Source: an uncultured Chloroflexia bacterium (GTDB taxonomy: Bacteria; Chloroflexota; Limnocylindria; Limnocylindrales; CSP1-4). Taken from it: 64,000 nt of DNA. The notes under the pieces were generated by a model. The model saw only the letters and a list, made by a program, of their open reading frames with translations, was not told the DNA's origin and searched no databases. The translations under genes were made by a program, and so were the position numbers. Location of the stretch: positions 398,266 to 462,265 of the forward strand of contig CAWHYQ010000002.1 of NCBI GenBank assembly GCA_963833705.1, given 5' to 3'. This document shows, one piece after another, positions 6,780-35,234 of the stretch (position 1 is the stretch's first letter; every line of letters starts with the position of its first letter).

Positions 6780-7502
6780 TCACCGCGTCCCTGTGATGAG
6801 CCGCTCCCGGACGAACATCGGAGCCACGATCCGCCAGCCGAGCACGTCTGCCACGAGCAGGATCGCAGTGAGACCGACCGCGACTGCCGGCGTCGGGCGG
6901 ATCGCGCCGAAGGCGATGAGGGAGGTCAGGAGGACCACCGGGAGATCGGCCAGGAGGCTGAGCTGCTGCGCGACGCGGACGTCGCTCGATCGTGTGGAGA
7001 TCGCGATCCCGACCCAGATGGACCAGGCGGCGAGCAATGGCGTGAGCAGTATCTGGGCGACGATGTCCGGGACCTGCAAGAGTGCTGAAGCGACGGCGGG
7101 TTGCGCGAACAGGACGACGCAGGCAAGGAAGATCGCGTACACGCCGTAGGCGATCGTCACGGCCGGCACCAGCGCTGCCAGGGCCTTGGCGAGCAGGAAT
7201 TCCTCGCGAGGGATCGGCGTCGTGAGGATCGGCTCCAGGCTCCCCTGCTGCCGCTCCCCGGCCACCGAGTAGGCCGCAAGGACCGCGGGCGCCAGCACCG
7301 GGATGGCCAGCATGTACAGCAGCAGGTGCCATCCCCCGAGCGTCTCCGCCGACGTCTCCGAGGTGAGGAAGACCACGGCCAGCGGCTGGATGAGGAAGAT
7401 GACGGGAAAGATCGCGGTCGCCACGACGACCGATCCGTGTCGCCGGTACTCGCGCATCTCCTTGCGAACGATGGCGCCGATCCGCCGGGAGCTCATCCTC
7501 AT
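6780..7502 (-). CDS. ABC-2 type transporter permease
   Basis: ATG at 7502 (MRMSSRRIGAIVRKEMREYRR) inside ORF 6780..8141. It has six hydrophobic segments and an ATGA overlap with the upstream ATPase gene. Confidence 0.8.
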   Translation of the reverse strand: MRMSSRRIGAIVRKEMREYRRHGSVVVATAIFPVIFLIQPLAVVFLTSETSAETLGGWHLLLYMLAIPVLAPAVLAAYSVAGERQQGSLEPILTTPIPREEFLLAKALAALVPAVTIAYGVYAIFLACVVLFAQPAVASALLQVPDIVAQILLTPLLAAWSIWVGIAISTRSSDVRVAQQLSLLADLPVVLLTSLIAFGAIRPTPAVAVGLTAILLVADVLGWRIVAPMFVRERLITGTR

Positions 7503-8482
7503 CGCAGAGCCGTCTCCCGCTCCTCGTCGATCAGCTCCAAGTAGACATCTTCGAGCGAGTGGCGCGTCTCGGTGATCGAGAGGACGTCTGCGCCCGCGGC
7601 CACGAGTGCCCGGGTCAATTCGGGCGCGGCGACCGTCGGGTCGGACACCGTCAGGACGTAGCCCGCCCCGTCGTCCAGGCGCCAGCCCTGGACCGCCGCG
7701 AGCCCCGCGAGGACGCGGTCGGGTTCCTCGAGTGCGGTCACCGTCCTGACCGTGAGGGTCCGCGCAAAGAGCCGGTCGCGAAGCTCGACGGGCCGGCCGA
7801 TCGAGCGCAGCGCCGTGTTCAGGATCACGACGCGATCGCAGAGTCGCTCCGCCTCCTCCAGGCGGTGCGTCGTCAGGAAGGTCGTCACGCCTCGCTGGCG
7901 GAGGCCGGCGATCAGCTCGTGGACGTCGCGAGTCGCGACCGGGTCGAGGCCGGCGGTCGGCTCGTCGAGGAAGAGCACCTCGGGATCGCTGAGCAGCGCT
8001 CGCGCGAGGGCGGTTCGCTGGCGAAGTCCCTTCGACAGGATGCCGCAGGTGTCGTGCGCCCGGGCCGTCAGGCCCATCGCGAGGAGGGCGGCATCGATGC
8101 GGGCAGGTGCGTCGGTGACTTCGTAGAGGTCGGCGAAGCACTCGAGGTTCTCGAGCACGCTGAGGCGGAGGTAGAGACCGGGTGACTCGGGCATGACGGC
8201 GACACGCCGGCGGATCGCTTCACCGTTCTGCGGCGTGAGGGGAATCCCAGCGATCGTGGCCGATCCGGAGGTCGGAGCGACGAGCGTGCCGAGCATCCGC
8301 ACGGTCGTCGTCTTGCCGGCGCCGTTGGGCCCGAGCAGGCCGAAGACCTCGCCCCGCCCCACGTCGAACGAGACGTCGTCGACGGCGAGTCGGTCGCCGA
8401 AGCGTTTCGAGAGATGTCGGACGGTCACCGCCGGCCCGCCGTCGCCCGCGATGGGCAACGGAGGCATTTCGCGGTCGCTCAT
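7499..8482 (-). CDS. ABC transporter ATP-binding protein
   Basis: ATG at 8482. Walker A is GPNGAGKTT, the signature is LSKGLRQR and Walker B is LFLDEPTAGLD. Confidence 0.9.
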   Translation of the reverse strand: MSDREMPPLPIAGDGGPAVTVRHLSKRFGDRLAVDDVSFDVGRGEVFGLLGPNGAGKTTTVRMLGTLVAPTSGSATIAGIPLTPQNGEAIRRRVAVMPESPGLYLRLSVLENLECFADLYEVTDAPARIDAALLAMGLTARAHDTCGILSKGLRQRTALARALLSDPEVLFLDEPTAGLDPVATRDVHELIAGLRQRGVTTFLTTHRLEEAERLCDRVVILNTALRSIGRPVELRDRLFARTLTVRTVTALEEPDRVLAGLAAVQGWRLDDGAGYVLTVSDPTVAAPELTRALVAAGADVLSITETRHSLEDVYLELIDEERETALR

Positions 8483-8546
8483 CTCGGTCGTAGCGTAGCG
8501 CCGGAACGACGGACGCCCTGCCCGTCGACCTCCGTTCCCTCCTCGA

Positions 8547-10394
<1,848 letters not shown>

Positions 10395-10398
<4 letters not shown>

Positions 10399-10441
10399 CA
10401 GCGCTCCGATCCGGTGTACAGTACCCATAGGTTATATAACC
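10395..10441 (+). promoter_or_regulatory. candidate sigma-70-type promoter (TTGACA-16-TACAGT) followed by the perfect 12-bp palindrome GGTTATATAACC, a likely ArsR operator
   Basis: TTGACA lies at 10395-10400, TACAGT at 10417-10422 and the palindrome at 10430-10441. This AT-rich island in GC-rich DNA sits immediately upstream of the ArsR-family gene. Confidence 0.4.
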
Positions 10442-10449
10442 AAATAGTG

Positions 10450-10815
10450 ATGGACATGCCGCAGCCCGACACCCTCAGCGTCACCTTCGCCGCACTGGCC
10501 GACCCGACCCGTCGGGCGATCCTTGCCCGTCTCGCCCAGGGCGAGGCCTCGGTCAAGGACCTGTCCGAACCGTTCGACATGAGCCAACCCGCCATCTCGA
10601 AGCATCTTCGGGTGCTTGAACGGGCCGGTCTGATCGAGCAGGGCCGGCAGGCGCAGTGGCGACCGCGTCGCCTGCGGGCGGGGCCGCTGCGGGATATCGC
10701 GGAATGGGTGGACCAGTACCGCCGTCATTGGGATGAGAGCTTCGAGCGATTGGACGACTACCTCCGCGAGGTCCAGGGCGAGGAGCACGAGCAAGGGAAG
10801 GAGCAGGAGCGATGA
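10450..10815 (+). CDS. ArsR/SmtB-family transcriptional regulator
   Basis: FAALADPTRRAILARLAQGEASVKDLSEPFDMSQPAISKHLRVLERAGLI is a classical ArsR wHTH. The start is assigned to ATG 10450; the track ORF starts at 10414. Confidence 0.85.
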   Translation: MDMPQPDTLSVTFAALADPTRRAILARLAQGEASVKDLSEPFDMSQPAISKHLRVLERAGLIEQGRQAQWRPRRLRAGPLRDIAEWVDQYRRHWDESFERLDDYLREVQGEEHEQGKEQER

Positions 10816-11309
10816 TCATGGCGATCGAACGATTTCGAAACGACACAACCCTCGTCTTCTCGGAGGCGACCGACCTCGTCTGGGAGCGCACCTTCGATGC
10901 CCCGCGCGATCTCGTCTGGGCCGCCTTCACGGATCCGGACCGGATCCCGCGCTGGTGGGGCCCGCACGGCACGACCGCGACGGTCGTCGAGATGGACGTC
11001 CGGCCGGGTGGCCGCTGGCGGTTCATCAGTCGGGCGCCGGATCGCGACGACGTGCCGTTCATGGGCGAGTACCTCGAGGTCGAAGCGCCCGCCCGCTTCA
11101 AGCAGACCTTCATCGTCGACATCGACGGGATGCGCGAACACGTCGGCGTCGAGACCTACACCTTCGAGGACGTCGGCGGGAAGACCAAGCTCACTTCCCG
11201 GTCGGAGTTCGGGACGATCGAGGCGCTCGAGGGCGCCGTCGCGACCGGCATGATCGCCGGGGGCGTCGAGACCTGGGACCGCTTCGAGGCGATGCTGGCC
11301 GAAGGCTGA
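10812..11309 (+). CDS. SRPBCC/AHSA1-domain protein
   Basis: ORF 10812..11309 overlaps arsR by ATGA. FDAPRDLVWAAFTDPDRIPRWWGP...GGRWRF is typical of the Aha1/START-like family that is commonly paired with ArsR. Confidence 0.85.
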   Translation: MIMAIERFRNDTTLVFSEATDLVWERTFDAPRDLVWAAFTDPDRIPRWWGPHGTTATVVEMDVRPGGRWRFISRAPDRDDVPFMGEYLEVEAPARFKQTFIVDIDGMREHVGVETYTFEDVGGKTKLTSRSEFGTIEALEGAVATGMIAGGVETWDRFEAMLAEG

Positions 11310-11321
11310 TCCATTGGCAGG

Positions 11322-11352
11322 GCCGGGCATCCCGCTCCGTGGGATGCCCGGC
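11322..11352. terminator. GC-rich hairpin between convergent genes (12-bp stem, 7-nt loop)
   Basis: The sequence is GCCGGGCATCCC gctccgt GGGATGCCCGGC, followed by TTCG. It lies between the stops at 11309 (+) and 11375 (-). Confidence 0.5.
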
Positions 11353-11374
11353 TTCGTCGCTCGGGTCGATCCAG

Positions 11375-12238
11375 TCAGGAAACCGACAGGGCGGCCCCGC
11401 CGGCGGGCATCACGAGTGTGCAGGTCGAGTCGCTCACCGAGTCGCAGCCGCTCCAGCTCGGCGTCAACGTCGTTGGATCGCCGTCGTTGATGGTTCGCTC
11501 CTTGGAGGCCGAGATCTGGATCGTCGAGCCTTCAGTAACGTAACTCGCGCAGGTCCTGACCTGGCCATACCCACTGCATCCGACACTGGTTCCGATGGCG
11601 ACGATGATCACGGTTGTGATGCTTCCGGTCGTGAGGCCGTGGACCGTCAATGTGAGCTTGGGGGCAAGACACACCATCGACATCGTCGCGTCCGGGTCGA
11701 CGGTCACTTGGACGACCCCATCAGCCGCTCCGAACCACTGCGCCGGGATCGCGCACGGCGACCCGTCGTCGCCGGATCCTGCTGGACCGGTCGGGCCAGT
11801 CGGGCCGGGGTCTCCGGTCGGTCCCGCAGCGCCCGAATCACCCTTGGGGCCGGGCTCGCCCTGACCACCCGTCGAGCCGGTCGGGCCAGCGAGCCCGTCG
11901 GCGCCGGTCGGGCCTTGGGCGCCCGTCGGGCCCGCGGCACCCGCGAGACCATTCGGACCGGTCGGTCCCAGGGCCCCAGTGGAACCGGTCGCGCCCGTCG
12001 GACCGGCGATGCCGCCATCCCCCTTCGGTCCGATCTGACTCCAGTTGATCGCGACCTCGACCTTGGGCAGGCATTGCGATGCGTTGTCCACGATCCGAAC
12101 CACACCGCCGGCCTTGCCGTAGCAGGCCTGGATCACGCCTCCCGTCCCCGGGATGGTCGCCCAGGCGACCCCGGTCACCAATGCGGTTGCCACGAGTGCA
12201 CTCGCGACGGCGCGTGGGAGCCTTGTGCGCCCCATCAT
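11375..12238 (-). CDS. secreted collagen-like (G-X-Y repeat) protein with a Cys-containing beta-rich C-terminal domain
   Basis: ATG ATG at 12238 ([27 protein letters not shown], signal-peptide-like). It has 29 uninterrupted G-X-Y triplets. The C-terminus (...[20 protein letters not shown]) resembles divergent InlB B-repeat domains from memory. Confidence 0.75.
11771..12031 (-). repeat. coding tandem G-X-Y (collagen triple-helix) repeat, 29 triplets
   Basis: [87 protein letters not shown] has a 9-nt periodicity at the DNA level. Confidence 0.8.
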
Positions 12239-18442: not shown

Positions 18443-19777
18443 TCAGGCGACGGCCTGGTCGGCGATGTCGAGTGCGCGGTCGATGATCTCGAAGCCCTCG
18501 GCCAGTTGCTCGTCCGTGATGCACAGCGGCGGGTTCGTGTGGACCGAGTTGTTGGCGATCATCGTGTACAGGTGGTTGTCCCGCAGGAACTTGCCGATCG
18601 CCTTCATCTCGTCCGAGGTGCCGTTGAACGGGGTGAGTGGCGTCCACGGGTCGTGGCCCCGGACCAGGTCGATGATCCCGAACAGGCCGAGGTTCCGGGT
18701 GGCGCCGACGCTCGGGTGCTTGGCCGCGAGCCGGCGATGGTGCTCGCGCATGATCGGGTCGAGGCGGGCGGCATTCTCGATCAGGCCGTCCTCCTCGTAG
18801 ACGGCGATCGTGGCGAGTGACGCCGCGAGGCTGACCGGGTGGCTGCTGTAGGTCAGCCCGCCATAGAACATGACCGATTCGAACTGTTCGGCGATGCCGT
18901 GTCGCATCGCTACCGCGCCGAGCGGCAGGTACGAACTCGTCAGGCCCTTGGCCATCGTCATCAGGTCCGGCGTGACGTCCCAATGGTCGACCGCGAACCA
19001 TCGGCCCGTCCGGCCGAAACCCGCCATGACCTCGTCGGCGACCATCAGGATGCCGTTCCGATCGCAGATCTCGCGGACACCCGCGATGTACCCGTCGGGC
19101 GGGATCAGGATCCCGTTCGTCCCGACGATCGTCTCGAGGAAGACCGCGGCGATCGTCTTGGCGCCCTCGTAACGGATCACGTCCTCGAGACCCTGGAGGC
19201 TCTCGGCCACGGGACGCGGTTCCGCCTCGCCCCAGCGATGCGTATCCGGGTAGCGGACGACGCCGACGATGCCGGGCTCGTTGGCCCATCGTCGGGGGTC
19301 GCCGGTCAGGGTCATCGCCCCGAGCGTCGCCCCGTGGTAGGCGCGGTAGCGGGCCAGGATCTTGTGCCGGCCGGTGGCGTGGCGGGCCAGCTTGATGGCG
19401 TTCTCGACGGCCTCGGCCCCACCGAGCGTGAAAAAGACCTTGTCCATGTCGCCAGGCAGGATCTCGGCGAGCTTGGCGCCAAGGCGGGCCCGGATCTCGG
19501 TGGCGAAAGCGGGTTGGACGTACTGGAGCTTGAGCGCCTGGGCGGTGATCGCGTCGATGACCCGTCGGTCGCCGTGGCCGATGTTGACCGACATCAGCTG
19601 GCTGTTGAAGTCGAGGATGCGCGTCCCCTCCGGTGTGTACAGGTAGACGCCCTCGGCGTGGTCGATCGCGATCGGGTCGAGCGTGCCCTGGATCGACCAC
19701 GAGAAGAAGGTGTGTTCGCGCGACAGCCGCGCGATCTCCTCGCTGGTCATCGGGCTGGAAGCGGTCGTGATGCCCAT
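18443..19777 (-). CDS. class-III (omega) aminotransferase
   Basis: ORF 18443..19777. FFTLGGAEAVENAIKLAR, LMVADEVMAGFGRTGRWFA and TMAKGLTSSY (PLP lysine) match beta-alanine/taurine:pyruvate-type transaminases. Confidence 0.9.
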   Translation of the reverse strand: MGITTASSPMTSEEIARLSREHTFFSWSIQGTLDPIAIDHAEGVYLYTPEGTRILDFNSQLMSVNIGHGDRRVIDAITAQALKLQYVQPAFATEIRARLGAKLAEILPGDMDKVFFTLGGAEAVENAIKLARHATGRHKILARYRAYHGATLGAMTLTGDPRRWANEPGIVGVVRYPDTHRWGEAEPRPVAESLQGLEDVIRYEGAKTIAAVFLETIVGTNGILIPPDGYIAGVREICDRNGILMVADEVMAGFGRTGRWFAVDHWDVTPDLMTMAKGLTSSYLPLGAVAMRHGIAEQFESVMFYGGLTYSSHPVSLAASLATIAVYEEDGLIENAARLDPIMREHHRRLAAKHPSVGATRNLGLFGIIDLVRGHDPWTPLTPFNGTSDEMKAIGKFLRDNHLYTMIANNSVHTNPPLCITDEQLAEGFEIIDRALDIADQAVA

Positions 19778-26301: not shown

Positions 26302-27165
26302 GTGACGCGCGACATGCCCCGAAACGTCCGCGGCGCGCTCGTCCAGGCCAGCTGGACGGGCGACAAGGAATCGATGATCCAGAAGCACGAGCAGCGCGCT
26401 CACGAGGCCGCCACGCAGGGCGCCCAGTTCATCCTGTTCCAGGAACTGTTCTACGGGCCGTACTTCTGCCAGGTCCAGGACGCCCAGTACTACAGCTACA
26501 CCGAGCTCATCCCCGACGGTCCGACGACCAAGCGGATGCAGGATCTCGCCAAGTCGACCGGGATGGTCGTGATCGCGCCGATGTACGAGGAGGACGAGAA
26601 GGCCTCCGGGATCTACTACAACACCGCCGCGGTCATCGACGCCGACGGCAAGTACCTCGGGAAATACCGCAAGACCCACATCCCGCACGTCAAGGGCTTC
26701 TGGGAGAAGTTCTACTTCCGGCCGGGCAACCTTGGGTACCCGGTCTTCGAAACCGCGGTCGGCAAGGTCGGCGTGTACATCTGCTATGACCGGCACTTCC
26801 CGGAGGGCGCCCGGGCGCTTGGCCTGAACGGCGCGGAGATCGTGCTGATCCCGAGCGCCACCTCGCGCGGATTGTCCGAGTACCTGTGGCGGATCGAACA
26901 GGTCAGCCACGCGGTCGCCAACGGGTACTACGTCGGCACGATCAACCGGGTCGGGATCGAGGCCGACTACGGCGACGACGACTTCTACGGCCAGAGCTAC
27001 TTCGTTGACCCGCGTGGCCAGTTCGTGGGCGACGTCGGGAGCGCCCATGACGAGGAGTTGATCGTCCGCGACCTCGACCTCGACCGGATCACGGAGGTCC
27101 GGAACACCTGGCAGTTCTTCCGCGACCGACGACCCGACGCCTACGAGGATCTCGTCCGACCGTAG
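26302..27165 (+). CDS. carbon-nitrogen hydrolase, beta-ureidopropionase (N-carbamoyl-beta-alanine amidohydrolase) type
   Basis: ORF 26302..27165; the ATG at 26314, with a GAGG Shine-Dalgarno, is the more likely start. It has FQELF, YRKTHIP and VYICYDRHFPE (Glu-Lys-Cys triad context). Confidence 0.85.
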   Translation: MTRDMPRNVRGALVQASWTGDKESMIQKHEQRAHEAATQGAQFILFQELFYGPYFCQVQDAQYYSYTELIPDGPTTKRMQDLAKSTGMVVIAPMYEEDEKASGIYYNTAAVIDADGKYLGKYRKTHIPHVKGFWEKFYFRPGNLGYPVFETAVGKVGVYICYDRHFPEGARALGLNGAEIVLIPSATSRGLSEYLWRIEQVSHAVANGYYVGTINRVGIEADYGDDDFYGQSYFVDPRGQFVGDVGSAHDEELIVRDLDLDRITEVRNTWQFFRDRRPDAYEDLVRP

Positions 27166-27184
27166 AACGCGCTATCATCCGCGC

Positions 27185-27218
27185 CGGCTCGGCCGTCTGG
27201 AGGAGGACGGCCGAGCCG
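27185..27218 (+). terminator. 13-bp-stem hairpin followed by CTTCGTTTCCC, between beta-ureidopropionase and the LLM oxidoreductase
   Basis: The sequence is CGGCTCGGCCGTC tggaggag GACGGCCGAGCCG. It could act as a terminator or as an attenuator. Confidence 0.4.
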
Positions 27219-27243
27219 CTTCGTTTCCCGAAAGGCACGTCTC

Positions 27244-28251
27244 ATGCAGTTCGGATTCACGCTCAAGCCCGATCACACCCTCGATCGAACGGTCGCCCTG
27301 ACCCGCCAGGCCGAGGCCGCGGGCTTCGACTACGGCTGGCTGTTCGACTCGCACGTCCTGTGGCGCGAACCGTACGTGCTGCTGACCCTGATGGCCCAGG
27401 CCACGACACGGCTGCGCCTCGGCACGTGTGTCACGAACCCGGCCACGCGCGAGCCTTCCGTGACGGCCTCCGCGCTTGCCGTCCTCAACGAGGTGTCGGG
27501 CGGCCGGATGGATCTCGGGATCGGGCGCGGCGACTCGGCCCGGCGCGTGCTGGGCAAGCCACCGACCACGATGGCCACCCTCGAGGAGGCGATCGTCGTC
27601 ATCAAGGCCCTCGTCGAGGGCCGGGCGATCGAATACGAAGGGGCCGAGCTGCGTCTGCCCTGGACGGGGTCATGGACGCTGCCCGTCTGGGTCGCCGGCT
27701 ACGGCCCCATGGCGCTCGCGATGACCGGTCGCGTCGCCGACGGGATCATCCTGCAGTTGGCCGACCCCGACCTCATCCGCTGGTTCGTCTCGCAGGTGCG
27801 TGAGGCGGCCGAGGCGGCGGGGCGCGACCCCGGCTCGATCAAGGTCCAGGCCGCGGCGGCGGCGTACATCGGGCCGCGTGAGCTCGGTCGGGAGCGGACA
27901 CGCTGGTTCCCGGCCCTCGTCTCGAACCATGTCGTGGACCTCGTCAACAAGTACCCGCGCGAAGCGTTGCCAGCGAGCCTGACCGGCTACATCCGCGACC
28001 GATCCGGCTACGACTACCAGCACCATGCCGAGGTCGGTTCGTCGAACGCCTCGTTCGTGGGTGACGAGGTGACCGATCGTTTCTGCGTGCTCGGATCGGC
28101 CGCCGACCATCTCGTCAAGCTGCGCGAACTGGCGGCGGCCGGGGTCGACCAGTTCAACGTCTACCTGATGAACGGCGACGAAGAGGCCCAGCTCGAGGCC
28201 TATGGCCGCGAGATCATCCCCGCGCTCCGGGACCTCGACGCGGCACGATAA
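27244..28251 (+). CDS. luciferase-like monooxygenase (LLM) class, probable F420-dependent oxidoreductase
   Basis: ORF 27244..28251. MQFGFTLKP..., GTCVTNPATREPSVTASALAVLNEVSGGRMDLGIGRGDS and VWVAGYGPMAL match the LLM/F420 TIM-barrel pattern. Confidence 0.8.
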   Translation: MQFGFTLKPDHTLDRTVALTRQAEAAGFDYGWLFDSHVLWREPYVLLTLMAQATTRLRLGTCVTNPATREPSVTASALAVLNEVSGGRMDLGIGRGDSARRVLGKPPTTMATLEEAIVVIKALVEGRAIEYEGAELRLPWTGSWTLPVWVAGYGPMALAMTGRVADGIILQLADPDLIRWFVSQVREAAEAAGRDPGSIKVQAAAAAYIGPRELGRERTRWFPALVSNHVVDLVNKYPREALPASLTGYIRDRSGYDYQHHAEVGSSNASFVGDEVTDRFCVLGSAADHLVKLRELAAAGVDQFNVYLMNGDEEAQLEAYGREIIPALRDLDAAR

Positions 28252-28285
28252 CGCCTGCGGTATCGCCCGTCGCTACCATGCCCCG

Positions 28286-30280
28286 ATGACGGTGGCGCGC
28301 CTCCGCCGCGTGTTGACGGTCAGCCGGCCGACGTCGTGGATCCAGACCGGTCTGCCGTTCCTGGTCGCGGCGTTCGCCGTGACCCGCGAACTCACGCCCC
28401 TGCTCGTGATCGGCACGATCTACTTCCTTGGCCCCTACAACCTGCTCCTCCACGGCGTCGACGAGGCCCACCAGGTCGACACGGACCCCGAGACCGTCGA
28501 CGACGACGACGCGGCGACGGCAGCCAGGGACCTCTGGATCGCGATCTCGGTCACGAACCTGCCGTTCCTCATCGTCCTGACCATCCTCGCCGGACCGGTC
28601 GCCGGGCTCGCCCTCCTCCTCGCAGTCGCGGCGGCCATCGCCTATTCGGACCTGCCGGCCCGGACGAGGGAGCGACCGATCCTCGATTCGGCGACGAGCG
28701 CCCTGCATCTGGTTCTGCCGGCGGCGTGCGGCTTCCTGGTCGTGGGACTACCGGTCGGCGAGCTGCCTTGGGCCGCCCTGTTCGCGTTCACGGCCTGGGC
28801 GATGGCGACCCATGCGCTCGAGGGTTGCCGCCGAGCCGGCGCGGATCGAGCGGCGGGGGTCGCGTCCGTGGCGACCGAGCTCGGCGTGCGGACGACCGCG
28901 GCGGGTGCACTGGTCGGCTACCTGTTCGCGGTCGTCCTGGCCGCCACCCAGGGGCCGGGCGGAGCCCTCGCGGCCGTCGGCCTGGCGCTCTATCTCCTCC
29001 CCGCCACGATGGTCGTCCTTCGCCCCGACGACGCGGTCGCCGAGGCCGCCTGGGGCCAGGTCGCCGGGCTCGACGTCCTGGTCGGGATCTGGCTCGGGTC
29101 CATCCTCGCGTGGGTCTGGGGGATCGTCCGGTTCGACCCCTGGGTCGCGTGGATCGGGCTCGCCTCCGGGGCGACGATCATCGTCCTGTTCGATGTCCTC
29201 GTGACCCGCTTCGCGGCCCGGCGTCGGACGGTCCCCATCCATCAGCGCACCCCGCGCGAGACCGACGAGTCGCCGTTGACCATCGTCGTGACCGGTCGCG
29301 ACCGGGCGGCCGACCTGCCGGCGTGCCTGGCGGCCCTTCGCGCGCAGACCCATCCCGACCCGAGGATCCTCGTCGTCGATGGGGCGTCCATCCTCGGAAC
29401 GACCGACCTCGCGCGTGGGCTGCTCGGGGACGATGGCGAAGTCGTGCCGCTCCCACCGGCCCCGCCAGGTTGGGACGGTGTCGGATGGGCTCGCGACGTG
29501 GGTGCCCGTGCCGCGGACGGCGACCTGATCCTGTTCGTCGACGCGAGCACGGTCCTGGCTCCCGTCGCGGTCCGGATCCTCGTCGAGCAGCTCGGCGCCG
29601 ATCGCGACGACATGGTCTCTGGCCTGCTGCGCCTGGCGATGCCGACCTGGGCCGAACGCCTCACGTCACCAGGGTTCGCGATGGTGTCGTTCGGGCTCGT
29701 CCCGTTGTGGCTGTCGAGGCGGACGGCCGGCCATCCACCGCAACTCGCGTTCGGGTCCGGGTCCCTCCTCATCGTCCGGCGCGAGGCGTACCTGACGACG
29801 GACGGTCACGCGGCAAACCCCGGCAGTCCACGCCCCGCGCAGGACCTGGCTCGGACCTTCGCCCGGGCGGGTCAGCGCGTCGGGCTGGTCCACGCGGCGG
29901 ACCTCGGGTCCAGTCGGCAGGGCGGGTCCATCCCAGGCGCCCTGGAGGCATGGCGACGTGGGTTCGTCGCGGGGGCCGGGGACTCGCTCGCGGGCGCGGT
30001 GGCGGTGCTCCTGGGTGAGGCCACGGCCCTGGCCCTGCCCCTGGCGCTCCCGATCGCCGCGTTCCTGGCTCGCGCTCCCCTGACCACGCTGGAGGCGAGC
30101 CTCGTCCCGCTCCTCATCCTGCTCCTCGGTCGGCTCGCGCTGGCCATCACGCAGCGGGAGCCCGTCGCGACGATCGTCTGGCATCCACTGACCGTCGCGC
30201 TGATGGTCATCGGGCAGGTGATCGGCATCGCGGACTTCGTGGTCGGCCGCCGGCCACGCTACCATCAGCCCCTGACCTGA
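28286..30280 (+). CDS. fusion protein: UbiA-like prenyltransferase domain + family-2 glycosyltransferase + C-terminal TM region
   Basis: ATG at 28286 inside ORF 28202..30280. The N-terminal 300 aa are polytopic, with VSRPTSWIQTGLPFLV and a second-motif-like ADRAAGVASVATELG. The middle (LTIVVTGRDRAADLPACLAALRAQTHPDPRILVVDGAS ... LILFVDAST) is GT2-like. The C-terminus has 3-4 more TM helices. Confidence 0.65.
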   Translation: MTVARLRRVLTVSRPTSWIQTGLPFLVAAFAVTRELTPLLVIGTIYFLGPYNLLLHGVDEAHQVDTDPETVDDDDAATAARDLWIAISVTNLPFLIVLTILAGPVAGLALLLAVAAAIAYSDLPARTRERPILDSATSALHLVLPAACGFLVVGLPVGELPWAALFAFTAWAMATHALEGCRRAGADRAAGVASVATELGVRTTAAGALVGYLFAVVLAATQGPGGALAAVGLALYLLPATMVVLRPDDAVAEAAWGQVAGLDVLVGIWLGSILAWVWGIVRFDPWVAWIGLASGATIIVLFDVLVTRFAARRRTVPIHQRTPRETDESPLTIVVTGRDRAADLPACLAALRAQTHPDPRILVVDGASILGTTDLARGLLGDDGEVVPLPPAPPGWDGVGWARDVGARAADGDLILFVDASTVLAPVAVRILVEQLGADRDDMVSGLLRLAMPTWAERLTSPGFAMVSFGLVPLWLSRRTAGHPPQLAFGSGSLLIVRREAYLTTDGHAANPGSPRPAQDLARTFARAGQRVGLVHAADLGSSRQGGSIPGALEAWRRGFVAGAGDSLAGAVAVLLGEATALALPLALPIAAFLARAPLTTLEASLVPLLILLLGRLALAITQREPVATIVWHPLTVALMVIGQVIGIADFVVGRRPRYHQPLT

Positions 30281-30307
30281 CTGCCGCCCGACCTCGAGGG
30301 AGGACCG

Positions 30308-31705
30308 ATGCGCACGCTCATCAGCCACGGGACGATCGTGACCGCGGACGCCTCGTTCGAGGCCGATGTCCTGATCGACGGCGAGACCATCGCCCAGATC
30401 GGGCGGGACCTCGCCGCTACCGGCGTGACCGCGGACGAGACGCTCGACGCGACCGGCGCCTATGTCATCCCGGGCGGCATCGACGTCCACACGCACATGG
30501 AATTGCCGTTCGGCGGGACCTTCGCCAAGGACACCTTCGAGACCGGCACGCGTGCCGCGGCGTTCGGTGGGACGACGTCCATCGTCGACTTCGCGGTCCA
30601 GAGCAAAGGTCAGTCGCTGCGAGCCGGCCTGGATGCGTGGCACGCCAAGGCCGAGGGCAACGCCGTCACCGACTACGGCTTCCACATGATCATGAGCGAC
30701 GTCAACGCCTCCACCCTCGCCGAGATGGACGGCCTGGTGGCCGAGGGAATCCCCGACTTCAAGCTGTTCACGGCCTACCCGGGCGTCTTCTACAGCGACG
30801 ACGGGGCGATCTTCCGGGCGCTCCAGCAGACCGCGAGGAACGGCGGGCTGATCATGATGCACGCCGAGAACGGCATGGCCATCGACGTGGTCGCCGAACA
30901 GACCTTCGAGTCGGGCACGACCGACCCGATCGGCCATGGTCTGGCGCGCAAGGCCATCTTCGAGGGCGAGGCGACCAACCGCGTCATCCGCCTGGCCGAG
31001 GCGGCCGGGGCACCCGTCTACATCGTCCACCTGTCGGCCCGCGAGGCGCTCGACGCGGTCCGCTCGGCACGCGATCGCGGCAGCAAGGTGTTCGCCGAGA
31101 CGTGTCCGCAGTACCTGTTCCTGTCGCTCGACGACCTCGGCCATGGGTTCGAAGGCGCCAAGTTCATCTGCTCGCCACCGCTCCGGACGAAGGATCACTG
31201 GGACGATCTCTGGACCGGGCTCGTCAAGGACGACCTGCAACTCGTGGCGACCGACCACTGCCCGTTCGACTTCCACGGCCAGAAGGAGCTGGGCCGGGGC
31301 GACTTCCGCAAGGTCCCCAACGGCCTGCCGGGCATCGAGGACCGGCTCGACCTGCTCCACGACGGCGGGGTCGTCGCCGGCCGGATCACGAAGGAACGGT
31401 GGGTGGAGATCGTCTCGACCGCGCCGGCCAAGCTGTTCGGGATGTATCCGCGCAAGGGGGCTGTCGCGGTCGGTTCCGACGCTGACCTCGTCATCTACGA
31501 CCCGAACGGGAGGCGGACCATCTCGGCGCGGACGCACCACATGGACGTCGACTATTCGTGTTACGAGGGCCGGGTGGTCCAGGGCGCGTCGCGGGTGGTC
31601 CTATCGCGCGGGTCGGTCGTCGTCCGCGACGGCGCATTCACGGGTCGCAAGGGCGCCGGCAGGTTCATCAAGCGAGCTCCCGCCGACCACGTCCGGGCCA
31701 ACTGA
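30308..31705 (+). CDS. dihydropyrimidinase / D-hydantoinase
   Basis: ORF 30308..31705 has GGIDVHTHMELPF, FKLFTAY (carboxylated Lys context), MMHAENG, VHLS and ATDHCPF. Confidence 0.9.
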   Translation: MRTLISHGTIVTADASFEADVLIDGETIAQIGRDLAATGVTADETLDATGAYVIPGGIDVHTHMELPFGGTFAKDTFETGTRAAAFGGTTSIVDFAVQSKGQSLRAGLDAWHAKAEGNAVTDYGFHMIMSDVNASTLAEMDGLVAEGIPDFKLFTAYPGVFYSDDGAIFRALQQTARNGGLIMMHAENGMAIDVVAEQTFESGTTDPIGHGLARKAIFEGEATNRVIRLAEAAGAPVYIVHLSAREALDAVRSARDRGSKVFAETCPQYLFLSLDDLGHGFEGAKFICSPPLRTKDHWDDLWTGLVKDDLQLVATDHCPFDFHGQKELGRGDFRKVPNGLPGIEDRLDLLHDGGVVAGRITKERWVEIVSTAPAKLFGMYPRKGAVAVGSDADLVIYDPNGRRTISARTHHMDVDYSCYEGRVVQGASRVVLSRGSVVVRDGAFTGRKGAGRFIKRAPADHVRAN

Positions 31706-32661: not shown

Positions 32662-34203
<1,542 letters not shown>

Positions 34204-34304
34204 CGAACGACCTCTTGATGTTCCAGCCGCCGGAGGGCGGTCCCGCGCGCTCGTGGGGTGACCACGATACTCCCTCGACATCGGCGGGCTGGGTCGCGCT
34301 GCCC

Positions 34305-35234
34305 TCAGAACCGCGGGCGTGACGCCGGATCCGCCCACGACACGTCTCCGGCCGCATCGGTCGGCGATGGCGTCTGGGCGGGCCCCCGATCGCGAAGCGC
34401 GAGGAGCACGAATGCCACCGCGCATCCGGTGGCGATGCCGAGCGCGATGAGGCCCCCGGCATCGAGTGGGCCGAGCACCGGCGGGTCTCGCCACGTGGTC
34501 GACACGGCGACCCTTGCCAGCGCCCACAGACCCACCCCGAGGAAGAACGACCGCCCATCCCGGCCGGCGAAGGCGCCGAGCATCAGGGCGATGGTGAGAC
34601 CGGTCAGGATGACGAGCGTGGCCACCCCCTCGTAGGCCTGCGACGGCTGGGATGGGAGGGCGGGGGCGAGCGAGCCCCACGGACCGGGGCCGAGATAGGC
34701 GGTCGCCCAGTCGGCCGTGCTTGGCAGCCCCTGCCCGGAACCGGTCAGGACCATCGTCAACTTGCCAGCGCCGAGCGCGAACAGGAGCGGTGCCGCCGCG
34801 ACATGGAGCCAGCGCCCGACCGACGCCCCGAGCAGGCTCGCCACATACGCCCCGGTCAAGGTGCCCCCGACGACCGCCAGGCCGAGCTCGAGTCCGCCCG
34901 TCGCGGGGTCCAGCAGCAACCCAGGCGAGGCGCCGTAGTAGCTCGCATGGAGGAGGGCGTAGCCGATCCGACCGCCGATGATCGCCCCGGGCACGACACC
35001 GACCGCGATGAACGCGACATCGTCCGCGCGAAGGCCGCCGGAACGGGCGAGGATCCCGGCCACGACGAGTGAGGCGACGAGGACGGCGACCAGCGCGATC
35101 GACCCCCAGCGGACGACGAGGTCACCGAACAGGTGGACGAGGGGGTCGAACTGGAAGGTCACGACGGCGATCGGCACGTTCCGGTGAGTGTATCGAAGGT
35201 TCGCTTGTCGGCTAGCCGACACGGAACGTGTCAA
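34305..35234 (-). CDS. divergent prolipoprotein diacylglyceryl transferase (Lgt)-like membrane protein
   Basis: ORF 34305..35234 is polytopic. GAIIGGRIGY and QPSQAYEG parallel the GARLGY and HP(T/S)QLYE motifs of Lgt. The start is uncertain. Confidence 0.65.
   Translation of the reverse strand: MTRSVSASRQANLRYTHRNVPIAVVTFQFDPLVHLFGDLVVRWGSIALVAVLVASLVVAGILARSGGLRADDVAFIAVGVVPGAIIGGRIGYALLHASYYGASPGLLLDPATGGLELGLAVVGGTLTGAYVASLLGASVGRWLHVAAAPLLFALGAGKLTMVLTGSGQGLPSTADWATAYLGPGPWGSLAPALPSQPSQAYEGVATLVILTGLTIALMLGAFAGRDGRSFFLGVGLWALARVAVSTTWRDPPVLGPLDAGGLIALGIATGCAVAFVLLALRDRGPAQTPSPTDAAGDVSWADPASRPRF

Follow-up and report, generated by a model that had tools for sequence, protein, structure and literature searches.

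We analysed a 64-kb window of DNA from an uncultured Chloroflexia bacterium (the whole stretch of 64,000 nucleotides, 70% GC), and in particular a gene that joins a UbiA-type prenyltransferase domain to a family 2 glycosyltransferase (GT2) domain. The gene is one uninterrupted open reading frame (ORF) on the + strand, from an ATG at position 28286 to a stop codon ending at 30280, and it encodes 664 amino acids; the 665 residues given in an earlier note, which was made without database searches, count the stop codon. The GC content at its third codon positions (0.89) is typical for a coding frame in DNA of this composition. It lies in a row of pyrimidine-catabolic genes, and its neighbours are those the note had named: a carbon-nitrogen (CN) hydrolase, an F420-dependent oxidoreductase of the luciferase-like monooxygenase (LLM) family and a dihydropyrimidinase. 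With a probability of about 70%, as judged from sequence comparison, the gene is an orphaned descendant of a fused enzyme of C50 carotenoid synthesis, in which a CrtEb-like lycopene elongase was joined to a GT2, and it has since lost its prenyltransferase competence.

Both domains score above the Pfam gathering thresholds: UbiA (PF01040) at residues 84-254, with 39.4 bits against 34.2, and GT2 (PF00535) at residues 333-502, with 53.4 bits against 23.3. An AlphaFold2 model built on 26 homologues (predicted local distance difference test score, pLDDT, 88.3; predicted template modelling score, pTM, 0.84) contains about 10 transmembrane (TM) helices (residues 2-310), then a GT-A alpha/beta domain (331-545) and finally three long helices (549-653), in agreement with the UbiA, GT2 and additional TM helices that the earlier note had read from the letters. 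The UbiA part of the model is a helical bundle (2-277) plus the tenth helix, with pLDDT mostly above 85. A PDB profile search with the protein recovers the archaeal UbiA structures 4od4 and 4tq3, and the Foldseek matches are membrane-embedded GT2s (PcManGT 6yv7, hyaluronan synthase and BcsA; E about 1e-8). In the model, the tenth helix would put the glycosyltransferase domain back on the cytoplasmic side. The protein contains 49 arginines and no lysine, which is extreme GC-driven amino-acid usage. Coordinates are collected in Table 1.

Table 1. The fusion gene, its domains and motifs, and its immediate neighbours, in window positions
Feature	Position	Strand	Remarks	Basis
CN hydrolase, beta-ureidopropionase-like	26302-27165	+	88-94% identical in most related loci	context gene
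F420-dependent LLM oxidoreductase, TIGR03842	27244-28251	+	450 bits; ends 34 nt before the fusion start	context gene
Whole fusion ORF	28286-30280	+	CrtEb-like UbiA domain, linking TM helix, GT2 GT-A domain, three C-terminal helices	Pfam, NCBIfam, AlphaFold2
UbiA/CrtEb-like nine-helix membrane domain	28286-29125	+	residues 1 to about 280	Pfam, NCBIfam, PDB profile matches, AlphaFold2
Degenerate first Asp-rich motif	28451-28486	+	HGVDEAHQVDTD, residues 56-67; ancestral YGVNDxxDYxSD(x)RNPRK replaced by DExxQxxxD plus an acidic run	
Degenerate second motif	28829-28858	+	RRAGADRAAG, residues 182-191; ancestral QDxxxD replaced by RRxxxD	
Tenth TM helix	29138-29215	+	residues 285-310; corresponds to the N-terminal TM helix of free-standing CruC/CrtQ-type GT2s	AlphaFold2
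GT2 GT-A catalytic domain	29276-29920	+	residues 331-545	Pfam, AlphaFold2, Foldseek, PDB profile search
Eroded nucleotide-binding motif	29372-29401	+	VVDGASILGT (family VVDDGSTDGS)	in-frame codon changes, no frameshift
DxD region	29534-29551	+	FVDAST (family FVDADT); last Asp replaced by Ser421	alignment, codons
PRPAQDLART	29828-29857	+	residues 515-524 (family REDIDLAR); Glu-Asp pair replaced by Pro-Ala, following Asp kept	
Three C-terminal membrane helices	29930-30244	+	residues 549-653; conserved WRR, TQRxP and WHP motifs kept	AlphaFold2, alignment
Dihydropyrimidinase, TIGR02033	30308-31705	+	582 bits; starts 27 nt after the fusion stop; strong GAGGGAGG ribosome-binding site	context gene

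The fusion is real. The earlier note had allowed for two neighbouring genes read as one, through a missing stop codon or a frameshift at about 29200-29280, or for orthologues that are always split; that prior suspicion is all that speaks for an artefact, and its chance is close to nil. A search of 5.8 billion proteins found 49 homologues that are fused over their full length (38-68% identity); they stem from independent assemblies and from several phyla. When 1.84 billion representatives at the 50% identity level were searched exhaustively with a profile, about 36 fused ones ranked above free-standing GT2s of ~380 aa (profile positions about 300-675) and UbiA proteins of ~290 aa. The identical 664-aa protein is present in an independent assembly from another read set. 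The junction, a conserved TM helix followed by an RRRR linker, aligns across all members. Because this tenth helix equals the N-terminal TM helix of the free-standing GT2s, the fusion consists of a complete CrtEb-like module and a complete CruC/CrtQ-like module. The closest free-standing GT2 homologues, which carry the annotation chlorobactene glucosyltransferase, are only about 32-34% identical to the C half of the window protein. A scan of genomes with the single window sequence gave no relatives, whereas an alignment-based scan did.

Motif-intact relatives in carotenoid operons

To place the family, we probed loci from genomes and metagenomes with crt and pyrimidine gene queries and sorted them into two classes. 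In class A (L004, L007, L010, L014, L017-L022, L024, L042/43 and L044), the gene order is crtYe-crtYf-fusion-crtI-crtB, frequently with overlapping stop and start codons (e.g. L042, with an intact fusion at 10001-12055, and L044, with one at 6791-8788). The hosts are Chloroflexota, including Limnocylindrales and Thermomicrobiales, Dormibacterota and one Actinomycetes metagenome-assembled genome (MAG). The crtE gene stands directly upstream of the cyclase genes in L044; L021 also has crtE upstream, with no cyclase match found. Standalone homologues of the N domain from Cellulomonas, Cellulosimicrobium and Saccharibacteria sit in clusters of the crtE-crtB-crtI-crtYe-crtYf-crtEb type, and tblastn with the C half (E<=1) found no separate GT2 gene within ±10 kb of these crtEb loci.

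The nearest NCBIfam family of the N half is NF009608/PRK13105 'prenyltransferase', on which the standalone homologues score 397-431 bits, intact fusions 274-310 and the window protein 172.9, below the cut-off of 217. The C half is nearest to HpnB (60.4 bits against a cut-off of 379) and to the carotenoid 2'-O-glycosyltransferase CruG (59.8 against 600); intact fusions also reach only 82-155 bits on these GT2 models. Since the motif-intact relatives sit in crtYe-crtYf-fusion-crtI-crtB operons, the family appears to combine a lycopene elongase of the CrtEb kind with a carotenoid glycosyltransferase of the CrtQ/CruC kind, and the class A members would be bifunctional lycopene elongases and C50-carotenoid glycosyltransferases. 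A quinone (MenA/UbiA) or polyprenyl-phosphate role was considered and rejected: the best families are of the CrtEb/LyeJ type, and every motif-intact relative is linked to crt genes. The likeness of the C-terminal part to carotenoid glycosyltransferases, to which the earlier note had pointed, is borne out by these operons and by the nearest free-standing GT2 relative, P0050, whose neighbours are two Amino_oxidase (desaturase/oxidase-type) genes, an aldehyde dehydrogenase and an acyltransferase. By its layout, the P0050 cluster resembles the C30 carotenoid glycoside-ester pathway (CrtN/CrtP/AldH/CrtO).

In Corynebacterium glutamicum, crtE-cg0722-crtBIYeYfEb is the gene cluster of the C50 carotenoid decaprenoxanthin, with CrtEb as the lycopene elongase and CrtYe/Yf as a heterodimeric cyclase; decaprenoxanthin is glucosylated by an enzyme that was unknown in this organism as of 2012 (PMC3598387). 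The N-terminal 280 residues of the window protein have their best match in the same UbiA-fold family as CrtEb, and the motif-intact fusions and standalone homologues adjoin crtYe, crtYf, crtI and crtB as crtEb does. The window protein departs from CrtEb in its sub-threshold NF009608 score, its incomplete NDxxDxxxD and DxxxD motifs, the lack of crt neighbours in 64 kb and the extra 380-residue GT2 module. That module shares its layout (N-terminal TM helix, GT-A domain, C-terminal TM helices) with CrtQ of C30 diapocarotenoid synthesis, the chlorobactene glucosyltransferase CruC, CruG and HpnB; it differs from them in falling far below the equivalog cut-offs, in its identity of about 32-34%, in its fusion to UbiA and in having DAS instead of DxD. 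A precedent for fusion of the elongase gene in C50 operons is LbtBC of Dietzia sp. CQ4, in which a lycopene elongase is joined to a subunit of the C50 cyclase (PMC6669644), and 400-430-aa proteins of that layout are among the representative matches. In LbtBC, however, which is catalytically intact, the partner is an N-terminal cyclase subunit and not a C-terminal glycosyltransferase. The second-tier family match of the N domain is to NF009516/PRK12875-type UbiA proteins, which we take to be linked to LyeJ, the haloarchaeal lycopene elongase/hydratase. LyeJ carries out the same kind of lycopene chemistry, but this match scores lower than PRK13105, and the cyclase-containing operons of the relatives point to the CrtEb type rather than the bacterioruberin type.

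The intact relatives, as natural fusions of lycopene elongase and glycosyltransferase in C50-type crt operons of Chloroflexota, Dormibacterota and an Actinomycetes MAG, carry most of the interest of this family. They suggest that glycosylated C50 carotenoids occur in phyla not known for such pigments, and they are candidates for the C50-carotenoid glycosyltransferase whose gene was missing in C. glutamicum in 2012 (PMC3598387). In the searchable literature, we found no description of a CrtEb-glycosyltransferase fusion or of C50 carotenoids in Chloroflexota or Dormibacterota. The fused architecture thus appears to be undescribed, its components and chemistry being conventional.

C50-type carotenoid genes also turned up in Saccharibacteria/Patescibacteria MAGs (L027, L028, L029, L032-L035 and L039). 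L027, L032, L034 and L035 carry crtE, crtB, crtI and a crtEb-like gene, with cyclase-subunit matches in L027 and L035; L028, L029, L033 and L039 carry only a partial set. The L027 elongase scores 397 bits on NF009608. Such genes are unexpected in the reduced genomes of the candidate phyla radiation, and bin contamination is possible.

Probable decay of the operon and of the motifs

The second class of loci accounts for the place of the gene in the window. Class B comprises the window and at least 13 related loci in which the order is CN hydrolase-LLM-fusion-dihydropyrimidinase with no crt gene within ±10 kb (L001/3, L002/6, L005, L008, L009, L011, L013, L015, L016, L023, L031, L041 and L045, with L012, which ends at the fusion, and L047, which begins inside the LLM gene, as partial loci). 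In the class A loci L007, L010 and L042, a full crt operon occupies the same slot, after the CN hydrolase and LLM genes. The dihydropyrimidinase gene follows the operon in L007, the only one of the three to reach that far; the sequences of L010 and L042 end at or inside crtB. L046 is intermediate: its LLM gene is followed by a 216-nt stump (positions 291-506), in which the N-terminal crtYe residues 1-37 are joined to residues 52-90 from the C-terminal part of crtYf, and after that by a motif-intact fusion and the dihydropyrimidinase gene, with no crtI or crtB. This locus is a snapshot of the decay of the crt operon.

Because related genomes carry the whole operon in the same slot, the position of the fusion is best read, on this comparison of gene orders, as a legacy of a crt operon that had settled there and later decayed; the gene is not a recent insertion, and its adjacency does not point to a metabolic link. 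The insertion into the pyrimidine cluster that the earlier note had thought possible does not fit these full operons, nor the at least 13 related loci that keep the fusion alone. In another class A locus, L004, the crt operon stands directly after the dihydropyrimidinase gene, not before it. Extra genes separate the partners in L045 (a phosphoenolpyruvate [PEP] mutase) and L001 (a 62-aa ORF), and loci from outside this lineage (L014, L017-L022, L024 and L044) never have pyrimidine genes near the fusion. In the 64-kb window itself, tblastn (E<=1e-4) found no homologue of crtE, crtB, crtI, crtYe or crtYf, and the window ORFs scanned contain no carotenoid or isoprenoid Pfam family.

UbiA enzymes bind Mg2+ and prenyl diphosphate through the motifs NDxxDxxxD and DxxxD (PMC7839719). 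All tabulated standalone and class A sequences, 12 crt-operon members among them, keep YG(V/I/A/L)NDxxD(Y/F)xSDxxNPRK and QDxxxD. The full first motif is absent from every class B sequence, although P0007 of L047 still has NDxxD, and the second is absent from most. Thus, motif state follows genomic context, with crt-operon members intact and orphans eroded. The stretches quoted in the earlier note are all present in the window protein (HGVDEAHQVDTD at residues 56-67, RRAGADRAAG at 182-191, VVDGASILGT at 363-372 and FVDAS at 417-421). Its view that the first Asp-rich motif is degenerate holds: the window has D59-E60-x-x-Q63-x-x-x-D67 in place of the NDxxDxxxD of crt-linked relatives, followed by ETVDDDD where they have RNPRK. 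Its likening of ADRAAG to the second motif is not supported; the stretch R183-A-G-A-D187 matches only the second half of QDxxxD, and Arg replaces the first Asp.

Erosion extends through the whole UbiA half. Among 72 columns that are at least 90% conserved in the reference set, 32 are still at least 80% conserved in class B and 24 have fallen below 50%, catalytic motif residues among them; 51 of the 72 conserved residues persist in the window protein. On a local hidden Markov model (HMM) of the N domain, standalone proteins score 430-462 bits, class A 375-435, the fusion P0005 377, class B 85-274 and the window protein 252. Some conserved residues are specific to the orphan class, such as His56 in LLLHG. 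Judged by its motifs and profile scores, the window protein is most probably no longer a prenyltransferase, and annotation pipelines, which will label this copy '4-hydroxybenzoate polyprenyltransferase' or 'lycopene elongase', are probably mistaken in both names.

The GT2 half and the C-terminal helices have been kept far better in the orphan class. Of 33 GT2 columns at least 90% conserved in the reference set, 24 remain at least 80% conserved in class B and one has dropped below 50%; the corresponding figures for the C-terminal helices are 16, 13 and one. The window protein retains 29 of these 33 and 15 of these 16 residues. C-half scores on the local HMM are 449-540 bits for class A, 437 for P0005, 265-432 for class B and 338 for the window. 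Orphans such as those of L003 and L011 have the DADT motif intact. The orphan class is probably still a membrane glycosyltransferase or a lipid-binding protein, with the UbiA half as a membrane scaffold. The window copy has gone further: VVDGASILG retains one Asp and has lost the second Asp and the TDG, and its DxD motif reads D419-A-S421 against a family consensus of DADT. Since the last DxD Asp and part of the nucleotide-binding motif are gone, the glycosyltransferase activity of this copy is doubtful. The same Asp was lost independently in P0002 (to Gly), within the subclade of the window. Frameshift or sequencing error was rejected as the origin of the eroded GT2 motifs: alternative frames give nothing, and comparison of codons with L045 shows in-frame substitutions and indels.

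Two Dormibacterota class A genes present the mirror image, with UbiA motifs intact and GT2 motifs decayed (L018:4114-6066 and L020:10001-11959). In these, VVDDGS is missing or reads VVTAAA, DADT has become TADS or GAPA, and the C half scores 233-264 bits. The L020 gene is in a full crtYe-crtYf-fusion-crtI-crtB operon; the L018 contig ends at the fusion, with only crtYe/Yf seen upstream. Set beside these loci, in which the glycosyltransferase half erodes and the elongase half is kept, the window gene and its class offer a useful case of a domain becoming a pseudoenzyme.

In a midpoint-rooted neighbour-joining tree, class B and P0005 form one clade, and the motif-intact P0005 is sister to the subclade of the window and P0002-P0004. 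This placement implies that the motifs were lost at least twice, after operon loss. The window protein groups with the fusions encoded in crt operons, in line with descent from crt-operon elongases. Together, the loci document a decay series that runs from the full operon through the cyclase stump and an orphan with intact motifs to an orphan with dead prenyltransferase motifs.

Selection and competing readings

Evolution of the fusion gene is not neutral. For the window and L045, whose fusions are 69% identical, the ratio of nonsynonymous to synonymous substitution rates (dN/dS) is 0.31 overall, 0.26 in the UbiA half, 0.26 in the GT2 domain and 0.57 in the C-terminal helices. Both copies are already motif-less, so this residual purifying selection postdates the decay. 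In neighbouring genes of the same pair, identity is 82-97% and dN/dS is 0.04-0.16. For other class B pairs the ratios are 0.34-0.38 in the N half and 0.08-0.31 in the C half (0.08 in the GT2 half of L011/L015), and class A pairs 0.21-0.35 and 0.44-0.50; the fusion family as a whole evolves fast. We rejected dN/dS as proof of relaxed selection, because motif-intact pairs have similar or higher values and only the erosion of motifs and profile scores separates the classes. Apparent gene disruptions in L023, L024 and L041 were likewise left out of the case for pseudogenisation: L023 and L041 also show splits in the conserved genes next door, which points to error-prone assemblies, and the L024 disruption is without such a split-neighbour control.

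We propose the following history. The ancestor would have been a CrtEb-type lycopene elongase (UbiA fold, nine TM helices) joined to a CrtQ/CruC-type membrane GT2 and encoded in a crtYe-crtYf-fusion-crtI-crtB operon. The intact enzyme would extend lycopene by C5 units to a C50 product, whose hydroxyl groups it would then glycosylate. In an ancestor of this Chloroflexota lineage, the operon would have lain between the F420-LLM and dihydropyrimidinase genes. Later deletion of crtYe/Yf, crtI and crtB would have left the fusion gene alone, and deletion in place would explain why it is now co-directional with the pyrimidine-catabolic genes and tightly spaced among them. The Mg2+/prenyl-diphosphate motifs of the UbiA half would have decayed next, independently in at least two sub-lineages, with the GT2 half and C-terminal helices being kept in the orphan class as a whole.

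The earlier note had suggested instead that one active polypeptide both prenylates or elongates a lipid (a carotenoid, a quinone or a polyprenyl phosphate) and glycosylates it. Both domains do pass their Pfam gathering scores, the fold is confident, the ORF is intact and under purifying selection, and the motif-intact relatives plausibly do both reactions in their crt operons. In the window copy, however, both UbiA motifs are incomplete (DExxQxxxD and RxxxD), RNPRK has given way to an acidic run, the NF009608 cut-off is failed, DxD has become DAS and VVDDGSTDG has become VVDGASILG; the 64 kb hold no detected crt partner gene, and the position was inherited from an operon that decayed in place. 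Dual activity of the window protein is accordingly very unlikely. At the other extreme, the gene could be a non-functional relic whose frame stays open only through the rarity of stop codons in 70% GC DNA. Erosion has reached the motifs of both halves, spurious long ORFs are frequent in the window, the last DxD Asp was lost twice in the subclade (Ser in the window, Gly in P0002), and no Shine-Dalgarno sequence precedes the fusion ATG, in itself weak evidence, whereas the dihydropyrimidinase gene has GAGGGAGG. We give this only a small chance in view of the constraint that followed decay (dN/dS 0.26-0.31 between the window and L045), the more than 20 diverged orphan sequences that hold the frame through many indels, the conserved residues that remain in all three parts of the protein and the pLDDT of 88.

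A third possibility is co-option: proteins of the orphan class would now serve as membrane glycosyltransferases or handle lipids, their dead UbiA half would provide a lipid-binding scaffold, and selection would keep them co-expressed with the pyrimidine genes. The adjacency persists across class B, where LLM identity to the window falls to about 76%; the gaps on either side are 34 and 27 nt, with no terminator-like site at the LLM-fusion-dihydropyrimidinase junctions; and in L004 the crt operon directly follows the dihydropyrimidinase gene instead of preceding it. GT2 and C-terminal columns are retained, dN/dS of the GT2 half is as low as 0.08, and residues such as His56 are specific to the orphans. 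A free-standing CruC-like GT2, P0051, also adjoins pyrimidine nucleoside genes. Against this, descent fully explains the adjacency (L007, L010 and L042), the fusion is never near pyrimidine genes outside the lineage, extra genes have entered between the partners in L045 and L001, reductive pyrimidine catabolism has no known step for which a membrane glycosyltransferase would be required and no family match suggests one, the DxD of the window is damaged and P0051 is a single observation. Co-option of this kind seems unlikely. We would also call speculative its widest form, in which the orphan class (about two thirds or more of the known family) would be a new membrane glycosyltransferase with a dead UbiA/CrtEb lipid-binding module, co-opted into an F420-linked pyrimidine operon of soil Chloroflexota and acting on a non-carotenoid lipid. 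The window protein resembles pseudoenzyme domains of multidomain proteins in that fold and structural residues are kept, metal and substrate motifs are lost and purifying selection acts; it differs from them in that any new role of its dead UbiA domain is hypothetical.

Several observations weigh against descent from a C50-carotenoid enzyme with loss of prenyltransferase competence, the reading we prefer. The view is limited to 64 kb, and crt genes elsewhere in the genome are possible; the chemistry of the intact form is taken entirely from genomic context and homology. DExxQxxxD keeps three acidic positions and precedes an Asp-rich loop, and some metal binding, perhaps in altered form, is conceivable. 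A real new function could also lie behind the survival of the gene in many lineages, packed tightly into the pyrimidine row. The orphan dN/dS of about 0.3 is not above that of motif-intact pairs, and these ratios come from dS values of 0.5-0.8, near the range where the NG86 method loses precision. At ~0.8 LLM identity, the contrast in the UbiA half (63-76% identical in pairs within class A, about 50% in pairs within class B, with the C half similar in both) comes from a small sample of 3-6 class A pairs. The main value lies in the intact relatives, some in the pseudoenzyme question and little in the activity of the window gene.

Other features of the pyrimidine gene row

A class-III aminotransferase, a pyridoxal-phosphate (PLP) decarboxylase and a methylmalonate-semialdehyde dehydrogenase (MMSDH) are also encoded close by in the window. 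The pyrimidine-catabolic set (26302-31705, 18443-19777 and 32662-34680) comprises the beta-ureidopropionase-like CN hydrolase, dihydropyrimidinase, aminotransferase and MMSDH, and no PydA-type dihydropyrimidine dehydrogenase is in view in the window. The highly conserved TIGR03842 LLM protein, placed where a PydA-type enzyme would be expected, may be a candidate uracil/thymine reductase. In the 78-nt gap between the CN hydrolase and LLM genes, positions 27185-27218 form a perfect hairpin with a 14-bp stem (11 GC pairs), a 6-nt loop and a weak T tail, which could be a candidate attenuator or processing site in the gene row.

Among the related loci, L045, the closest relative of the window, carries its PEP-mutase-family gene at L045:9121-9939, between the LLM and fusion genes; this gene is not in the window. 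L005 and L015 are two contigs of the MAG MFD02199.bin.2.130, and each carries the whole aminotransferase-to-LGT region including an orphan fusion, which reflects either a large duplication or the mixing of two related populations in one bin. The free-standing GT2 P0051 (L049:6682-7839) is 32% identical to the C half of the window protein and stands directly upstream of genes for a nucleoside transporter, a purine/uridine phosphorylase, a cytidine deaminase, an amidohydrolase and a pyrimidine-nucleoside phosphorylase; as a single case, this neighbourhood is possibly a coincidence. The aldehyde dehydrogenase ORF on the - strand (32662-34680), listed with 672 aa, matches MMSDH only from residue 179, and translation probably begins about 530 nt further along than the first in-frame start codon, giving a gene product of about 495 aa.

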